Sequence record: MN850614.1
From: Escherichia phage adrianh
Length of the DNA stretch: 64,000 nt
Strand: one strand, 5' to 3'
The notes below the pieces were generated by a model that was not told where the DNA came from, searched no databases, and saw nothing but the letters and a program-made list of their open reading frames with translations. Below are positions 63,088 through 63,181 of this stretch, one piece after another (positions within the stretch are counted from its first letter, which is position 1; each line of letters begins with the position of its first letter). The position numbers and the translations under genes are program-made.

Positions 63088-63181
63088 ATTCAGAGGTCAA
63101 GTGAAAGACCGCTGGTGTCAACTGAAGACCGTAACAAATTCCACGGAGTTGAGTTAGCGGCACAACTTCAGACCTCTTTCA

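Follow-up and report, generated by a model that had tools for sequence, protein, structure and literature searches.

What does the 95-nt spacer between tRNA-Thr and tRNA-Val of a Felix O1-like phage encode, and is it kin to the four E elements at the head of the same tRNA cluster? An earlier note on this locus had described a structured spacer that shares a motif with the E elements. We analyzed the spacer within a 64-kb window (the whole stretch of DNA under study), which comes from a Felixounavirus (Felix O1-like) genome and whose final 3.7 kb show 96-98% identity to Felix O1 and many further Felixounavirus genomes. The tRNA cluster comprises 18 tRNA genes called by ARAGORN, all on the + strand. 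Placement of the spacer between tRNA-Thr and tRNA-Val was borne out by ARAGORN and Rfam tRNA calls: tRNA-Thr(tgt), with an encoded CCA, occupies 63011-63087 (+; Rfam tRNA, 54.7 bits) and ends 5 nt from a hairpin, and tRNA-Val(tac) (63183-63257, +) lies directly 3' of that element. The intervening spacer (63088-63182) is nearly filled by the hairpin (63093-63176), leaving linkers of 5 nt on the tRNA-Thr side and 6 nt on the tRNA-Val side. Other tRNA pairs of the cluster are mostly 1-10 nt apart and have no hairpin. Two further long non-tRNA gaps of ~250 nt each occur on the + strand, at 62093-62334 and 62425-62680, and a long inverted repeat (ttagagggcttctaaggtt ... ggttcttagaagttctctaa) at 62586-62685 gives spurious microRNA-precursor matches in Rfam. 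A weak Rfam tRNA (31.7 bits), not called by ARAGORN, lies at 62014-62092 (+), with the anticodon UCU (Arg) in the arm GCGGU-CUUCUAA-ACCGC and with an unusually long variable region. This segment is the least conserved of the cluster (identity 0.68), and it is annotated as tRNA-OTHER or pseudo-tRNA in relatives, with a normal tRNA-Arg(tct) at this place in one lineage (L293).

The spacer folds into a single nested rod (-30.7 kcal/mol, z = -2.92), whose stability was equalled by 1 of 200 dinucleotide shuffles. Followed from its base to its tip, it runs through P1, P1b, an internal loop, P2, P3, a 5-nt bulge, P4 and a 10-nt loop. It is preceded by the single-stranded, A/U-rich 5' linker AUUCA (63088-63092, +), which is variable among relatives. 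The conserved element proper, 84 nt in length (63093-63176, +), was recovered by a covariance model, R1, with a cmsearch score of 111.8 bits (E = 6e-27). It opens on the 5' strands of P1 (GAGGUC) and P1b (AAGU) at 63093-63102, with partners at 63171-63176 (GACCUC) and 63165-63168 (ACUU), respectively; P1b is lost in Avunavirus, the other phage group in which the element occurs. The 5' side of the internal loop, GAAAGA (63103-63108), includes G63107, which pairs with C63161, and a bulged A63108. The 5' strands of P2 (CCGCUGG, 63109-63115; partner UUAGCGG, 63154-63160) and P3 (UCAACU, 63118-63123; partner AGUUGA, 63147-63152) lead to the 5-nt bulge GAAGA (63124-63128), which is unchanged in 21 of 21 variants and lies within the motif common to E2 and E4. 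P4 (CCGU/ACGG) then closes the 10-nt loop AACAAAUUCC (63129-63146). The 3' strands of P2, P1b and P1 follow at 63153-63176, separated by small internal loops (G, ACA and CA), and the 3' linker UUUCAC (63177-63182), which is very variable among relatives, ends at the predicted RNase P site of tRNA-Val. All of these parts are on the + strand. The earlier note had pointed to two inverted repeats in this region. GAGGTC/GACCTC (63093-63098/63171-63176) is P1 itself; it closes the minimum-free-energy fold and is kept in all relatives, including a compensatory G-C to U-A change with a G-U intermediate. GTGAAAG/CTTTCAC (63103-63109/63176-63182) is also present in the window phage, but it competes with the conserved fold and its 3' arm is not conserved. 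Since that arm sits in a lineage-variable tail, which reads TTTAAAGC, TTTTCATA or TTCAAAGC in relatives and TCTTCTAT in Avunavirus, we regard this second repeat as a product of chance.

A model-guided alignment of 21 distinct variants indicates that the pairing is under selection in the outer part of the rod. Standard pairs make up 94.3% of the pair cells; displacing the 3' partners by 1-3 columns lowers this share to 25-43%. Both-sided changes were seen in four pairs, in two cases with a G-U intermediate, and only 5 of 500 column shuffles gave as many. The third pair of P1 changes from G-C to U-A in Avunavirus, with the G-U intermediate in L294. P2 holds CCGC/GCGG constant save for a compensatory G-C to A-U change in L289 and L290, with a G-U intermediate in L309, and the pair flanking P2 (63107/63161) changes from G-C to A-U in Avunavirus, but is A/A in L293. 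The fourth both-sided change is one G-U to U-G. All covariation falls in P1 and P2 and none in P3, P4 or the loop. P3 varies only by U-A to U-G at its top pair and by two mismatches at its bottom pair; in P4, one pair changes from G-C to G-U in Avunavirus and one pair is broken in L263 and wV8 each; and a P1 pair is broken in the single variant L298. Within the loop, position 8 may be U, C or A and the other positions are constant. Since the rod hardly varies from P3 to the loop, pairing in this part is untouched by covariation and rests on thermodynamics and a few wobbles. The small number of covariation events can be attributed to the family's having only two or three divergent lineages. The wobble substitutions (U-A to U-G, G-C to G-U and A-U to G-U) pair solely as + strand RNA, which favors an RNA over a DNA cruciform.

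The sequence of the P3-bulge-P4-loop region is clearly constrained as well. Its core, GUCAACUGAAGACCGUAACAAAU, is identical in Ounavirinae and Avunavirus, whereas the outer helices differ. Pairwise identity across 28 Felix-like variants averages 0.959 over the whole element and 0.987 over the core; the element is as conserved as most tRNAs of the cluster or more so, and the other intergenic stretches range from 0.88 to 0.95. The spacer is a conserved structured RNA element. The description of a structured spacer stands on the significantly stable fold, the covariation in P1 and P2 and conservation in two phage subfamilies, and RNA folding, which had been put forward as a check, recovered a structure that is kept among relatives. 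A protein-coding spacer was rejected: although frame 1 is free of stops, its start falls within tRNA-Thr, and 1-nt indels between variants disrupt it. Some GenBank records carry a 'hypothetical protein' annotation over the element.

The distribution of the element is narrow. A BLAST search of 50,697 phage records returned matches in Felix-like and Avunavirus genomes only. Approximately 253 Felixouna-, Moogle- and Suspvirus records have one element each, always between tRNA-Thr and tRNA-Val, and essentially every Felix O1-like phage carries the hairpin. In six Avunavirus (Vequintavirinae) records, the element follows tRNA-Gly(tcc) and is succeeded by a 75-codon ORF and a DUF7338 gene. In every case, in Felix-like phages and Avunavirus, it begins 5-7 nt past a tRNA 3' end. 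R1, which was built from 13 variants, together with a metagenome scan gave 35 copies with 21 distinct sequences and a single copy per genome, by which a MITE-like mobile element was ruled out. The scan, based on 20-mers, supplied extra Felix-like and Avunavirus variants and an intermediate lineage (L293); 14-mer scans of viral contigs gave chance matches only. No copy occurs in T4-like phages that bear DUF7338, in 75 other phage loci with a DUF2828 gene (searched with R1) or in Yersinia phage vB_YenM_P778. In P778, the tRNA-Thr/tRNA-Val junction (L392, 7304-7456) holds an unstructured, acidic 42-codon ORF with a ribosome-binding site, which makes the junction a hotspot for alternative inserts. 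An exact 24-nt match to the Sf14-type core, CAACTGAAGACCGTAACAAATCCC, was seen in a Desulfuromonadaceae MAG (JAWOFA010000110.1; L310, 50-69). It has no R1 match at E <= 0.01 and is the sole bacterial-genome match, where ~1 20-mer match is expected by chance.

Comparison of the window with Escherichia phage Av-05, an Avunavirus, shows how the element may travel. Window positions 62930-63912 are collinear with Av-05 (L255, 5598-6578, minus strand) through tRNA-Gly(tcc), the element and the DUF7338 gene, with nucleotide identities of 88.5%, 82.8% and 72.9%, respectively. The rest of the 64-kb window has few nucleotide-level matches to the 121-kb Av-05 genome (a nicotinamide phosphoribosyltransferase gene and tRNA-Tyr). 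As these two genomes are otherwise dissimilar, the element is part of a small cassette that has passed between two phage subfamilies. DUF7338, predicted to be a membrane protein, also occurs in T4-like phages. We rejected the element as a cis-regulatory leader of the DUF7338 gene, because no such element lies upstream at T4-like or other DUF7338 loci, and two tRNAs intervene between element and gene in the window phage.

The element has no transcription signals of its own. Promoter-like sites on the + strand of the cluster occur only at 60227, 60318 and 61781; the nearest upstream one ends at 61809, and a scan of 61809-63792 detected no sigma-70-like promoter or intrinsic terminator on that strand. 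The hairpin was itself considered as an intrinsic terminator and rejected, as there is no terminator-like site at 63088-63182 and the tail UUUCAC runs straight into the tRNA. We put at even odds (a probability of about 0.5) the reading that the spacer encodes a structured RNA of ~84-95 nt, which is part of the polycistronic tRNA precursor and is freed by tRNA-processing enzymes. The small RNA would be co-transcribed within that precursor. Cleavage by RNase P at the 5' end of tRNA-Val, where the 3' linker ends, is expected from the known action of this enzyme and would free the 3' side of the hairpin. An endonuclease such as RNase E, for which the 5' linker (63088-63092) is the presumptive site of 3'-trailer cleavage, would act with 3' exonucleases to shorten the tRNA-Thr trailer and the tail as far as P1. 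We thus infer release of the hairpin during maturation of the adjacent tRNAs from known RNase P and 3'-trailer processing, with transcription and processing presumably yielding a stable species. The outer helices P1 and P2 would act as a clamp that evolves by compensatory change, shields the ends and presents an apical module composed of P3 (UCAACU/AGUUGA), the GAAGA bulge, P4 (CCGU/ACGG) and the loop. This module may be specifically recognized by a protein or, with lower likelihood, by another RNA, and is accordingly described here as a putative binding site. The whole element behaves as a portable module that moves with tRNA-Gly and the DUF7338 gene between otherwise unrelated phages. Most probably, then, the spacer RNA is a stable by-product of the tRNA operon that turned into a module with a sequence-specific apical recognition site. 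A further step along this line, to which we give a low probability, is that it constitutes a mobile, undescribed phage non-coding RNA whose bulge-loop module specifically engages, or lures away, a factor of host or phage that binds or cleaves RNA. On this doubtful reading, the RNA could for instance travel within the tRNA operon to counter defence or to modulate RNA surveillance, and it may have arisen from the terminal helix of the neighboring Y-like RNAs. Our literature search found no paper on Felix O1 transcriptomes or small RNAs, nor RNA-seq, Northern or other expression data from any Felix O1-like phage.

The second part of the question concerns the E elements: E1 (60540-60618), E2 (60707-60776), E3 (61162-61241) and E4 (61249-61385), all on the + strand. 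Directly upstream of the tRNA cluster lies a gene (58792-60207, +) for a 471-aa protein with Pfam domains DUF2828 and DUF7788. This protein has full-length homology to mycobacteriophage proteins annotated as 'Ro-like RNA binding protein', and its AlphaFold model (pLDDT 88.7) matches crystal and cryo-EM structures of Ro60/TROVE proteins over its full length. The best eleven PDB matches are all Ro60/TROVE (E = 2e-8 to 3e-6), among them Ro60 of Thermus phage phiLo, Xenopus Ro60 and Deinococcus Rsr. The protein has homologues in 709 phage records, with hosts that include Vibrio, Listeria, Staphylococcus, Campylobacter and Mycobacterium. E1-E4 share a terminal architecture of a 4-bp outer helix, an AGA bulge and a helix AGACCNN/NNGGUCU, in which the outer helix and the NN positions covary across the four copies. 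Within E4, 61290-61370 contains a V-like hairpin, a T arm (GAAGG UUCGAUU CCUUC) and a D arm (GUGU AAUGGUA GCAC), with a 7-bp acceptor-like hairpin (ACUCGGC AGAU GUCGAGU) between the T and D arms. This permuted order is the YrlA topology; a permuted order of tRNA-like arms defines the YrlA-type Y RNAs (PMC4201824). ARAGORN found no tRNA in a manually re-permuted E4, and Rfam YrlA gave no match to E4. An E-family pattern (AGR-N4-(2-4 nt)-C[ACU]GCAA ... rc(N4)-YCU-G), applied strictly to the + strand of the window, retrieves exactly E1-E4. In diverse DUF2828 loci from viral contigs (L317-L391), it retrieved 71 elements in 43 of 75 loci on the gene strand and 0 on the opposite strand, mostly <1 kb from the DUF2828 gene. 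N4, which is CCGU in the window phage, varies freely between E-family lineages, and several distant E-type RNAs have significant, though sub-threshold, Rfam YrlA matches (E = 7e-6 to 5e-5). E1-E4 fit the class of YrlA/YrlB-type Y RNAs (RF02553; PMC4201824), which includes Yrl1/2 of phiLo (PMC12135203): they lie just downstream of a Ro60/TROVE-like protein gene, they likewise end in a bulged terminal helix, and E4 has V, T, acceptor-like and D arms. E1-E4 are therefore best read as Y-RNA-like partners of the Ro60-fold protein at the head of the tRNA cluster. The Ro60/Y-RNA system would seem to reach into Felix O1-like phages and many others, an extension not described before. The survey of Chen et al. 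(2014) covered only genomes with an annotated TROVE-domain protein (PMC4201824), and our literature search found no paper tying DUF2828 or Felix O1 to Y RNAs.

Is the spacer related to this family? The motif noted earlier, CTGAAGACCGTAACAA, is indeed present at 63121-63136, and GAAGACCG occurs 4 times in the window vs. 0.69 expected; the three + strand copies are in E2, E4 and the spacer, and the sole minus-strand copy (62029) is the anticodon arm of the tRNA-Arg(UCU)-like gene. The best local alignment between spacer and E elements, ACnGAAGACCGT, matches at 11 of 12 bases. The resemblance to the 5' ends of E1-E4 is real as letters, but it is not significant alone, since 418 of 3000 dinucleotide-preserving spacer shuffles (14%) score at least as well against E1-E4. 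The letters held in common, ACnGAAGACCGU, are the AGA start plus CCGU, that is, the N4 that is free to vary in the E family. When we ran the comparison with E1-E4 that the note had called for, the proposed kinship through GAAGACCG found no support, as only lineage-specific stem letters are common, the CAGCAA box and YCU-G are absent, and the strict E pattern skips the spacer. The box region reads AGACCGU-AAC-AAAUUC in the spacer vs. AGACCNN-NUA-CAGCAA in E1-E4, and the 3' strand reads ACGG-AGU vs. the E-type ACGG-UCU-G. In addition, the motif helix of the spacer is apical rather than terminal, being enclosed by P1-P3. Av-05 keeps the element with an identical core, and tblastn and profile HMM searches of that genome found no DUF2828 homologue; it also has no E-type RNA. 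The likeness of the spacer to the E elements is probably superficial, and the apical hairpin may nonetheless have descended from an E-type terminal helix.

These same observations bear on the possibility that the phage Ro60-like protein has a fifth, atypical ligand in the spacer RNA, which could act as a competitor, regulator or tether. Here, the DUF2828 protein would bind the bulged helix, ACUGAAGACCGU, as a mimic of the 5' strand of the E2/E4 terminal helix. In the spacer as in E2 and E4, the 11 of 12 common bases form the 5' strand of a helix broken by a purine bulge, and it is the 5' strand of the Y RNA helix that Ro60 is reported chiefly to contact (PMC4201824). The Ro-like gene lies on the same strand, 2.9 kb upstream, and accompanies the element in essentially all Felix-like genomes. 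Set against this are the 14% of shuffles that do equally well, the restriction of the common letters to the lineage-variable part of the E family, the missing CAGCAA box and YCU-G, the persistence of the identical core in Av-05, which has neither DUF2828 homologue nor E-type RNA, and the failure of R1 to find such a hairpin by 75 other DUF2828 genes. We consider a Ro-like ligand quite unlikely, and retain it as a minor rival because the structural analogy of the purine bulge remains.

The hairpin might instead be passive, preventing tRNA-Thr and tRNA-Val from misfolding together or guiding RNase E or RNase P and then being degraded, and would have no role of its own. This would suit an element without a promoter or terminator that fills its spacer almost entirely and always starts 5-7 nt past a tRNA 3' end, in Felix-like phages and Avunavirus alike. 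However, an invariant 40-nt apical sequence would be superfluous in a mere spacer, most tRNA pairs of the cluster manage at 1-10 nt with no hairpin, the element is followed by ORFs rather than a tRNA in Avunavirus, and P778 has its unstructured 42-codon ORF at the same junction. An insulator of this kind is unlikely. A functionless relic carried along by the tRNA-Gly/DUF7338 cassette, be it the decayed remains of an E-type RNA, of a tRNA or of an insertion scar, would account for the narrow distribution, with absence from other Ounavirinae-like and T4-like relatives, for the mosaic nature of a region with alternative inserts at the Thr-Val junction and for the likeness to the E terminal helix. 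Such a history is hard to reconcile with compensatory substitutions through G-U intermediates, which indicate pairing under selection, with tRNA-level conservation within Felix-like phages, or with a core that stayed invariant while the adjacent DUF7338 gene diverged to 73% nucleotide identity; we regard it as highly doubtful. Lastly, the inverted repeats could act as DNA, as a protein-binding site or cruciform such as a homing-endonuclease target or recombination site. Several relatives have HNH endonuclease genes inserted among their tRNA genes, and the Thr-Val junction is a hotspot of alternative inserts. Nevertheless, the changes from Watson-Crick to G-U pairs fit + strand RNA alone and would leave an A/C mismatch on the other strand or in a cruciform, and neither the window nor Av-05 has an endonuclease gene next to the element, which makes a DNA-level site very improbable. 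The reading we prefer remains a structured RNA released from the tRNA precursor.

Phage tRNA clusters are increasingly seen as counter-defence loci, and the non-tRNA RNAs inside them, e.g., RNAC and RNAD of T4, are still functionally unexplained. Felix O1-like phages are widely used in typing and therapy. Being near-universal in Felix O1-like phages and exchanged with Avunavirus, the hairpin is a tractable candidate for learning the role of such RNAs. For the specialist, the hairpin is a weaker lead than the Ro60-like protein and Y-like RNAs with which the cluster begins.

How does the element compare with known RNAs? No Rfam 15 family matches it at E <= 10, even in a 111-nt search. A tRNA or tRNA pseudogene was rejected, as ARAGORN and Rfam RF00005 are silent in 63088-63182, no GTTCRA T-loop is present and the fold is a single rod. 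In hammerhead ribozymes, the core boxes CUGANGA and GAAA flank stem II within a three-way junction that includes a cleavage-site triplet. The spacer's CUGAAGA (63122-63128) fits the first box, but AGUU rather than GAAA comes after the would-be stem II (CCGU/ACGG), and the spacer has neither a three-way junction nor a match to an Rfam hammerhead family. HDV-like 'theta' ribozymes are linked to phage tRNAs and have a nested double pseudoknot (P1, P1.1, P2, P3, P4) that cleaves at its 5' end, just 3' of the tRNA. The spacer is likewise directly 3' of a tRNA, but its conserved pairs are all nested in one hairpin and no HDV-type Rfam family matches it. Several candidate features within the hairpin fared no better. 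The core UGAAGACCGUAACAA resembles 16S rRNA 1489-1503 (UGAAGUCGUAACAA), but a mimic of the decoding site was dismissed, as 67% of shuffled cores align equally well to E. coli rRNAs. Inspection of the GAAGA bulge for a K-turn found no tandem G-A/A-G partners on the opposite strand. A trans-acting sRNA seed in the loop was rejected because its complement, GGAATTTGTT, shows no enrichment across the window (11 matches vs. 8.4 expected). Finally, potential pseudoknots between loop and 5' linker (AAUU), between bulge and 3' tail (UCUUU), and through CUGAAG/CUUCAG or GTGAAAG/CTTTCAC were discarded, since their partners are unconserved in Moogle-, Susp- and Avunavirus.

Two comparisons place the element most closely. 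With respect to YrlA-type Y RNAs, the spacer has neither the CAGCAA box nor canonical YrlA's GNCGAA motif and lacks a tRNA-like domain, its motif helix is apical, and it persists in a phage without a Ro-like gene; searches of 3.7 kb and 111 nt gave no spacer match to Rfam YrlA (RF02553) or Y_RNA at E <= 10. The other comparison is with T4 RNAC and RNAD (species 1 and 2 RNAs), small non-tRNA RNAs of the phage tRNA region whose roles are unknown (PMC3014915; PMC9697503). Like these, the spacer lies inside a tRNA operon, on the same strand, without a promoter or terminator of its own. The likeness is one of genomic position and not of homology, as BLAST found no sequence similarity of the element to T4-like phages. 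Judged by that position, RNAC and RNAD are the closest known analogues, and the hairpin is most likely their functional counterpart in Felix O1-like phages, standing outside the neighboring Y-RNA-like E family.
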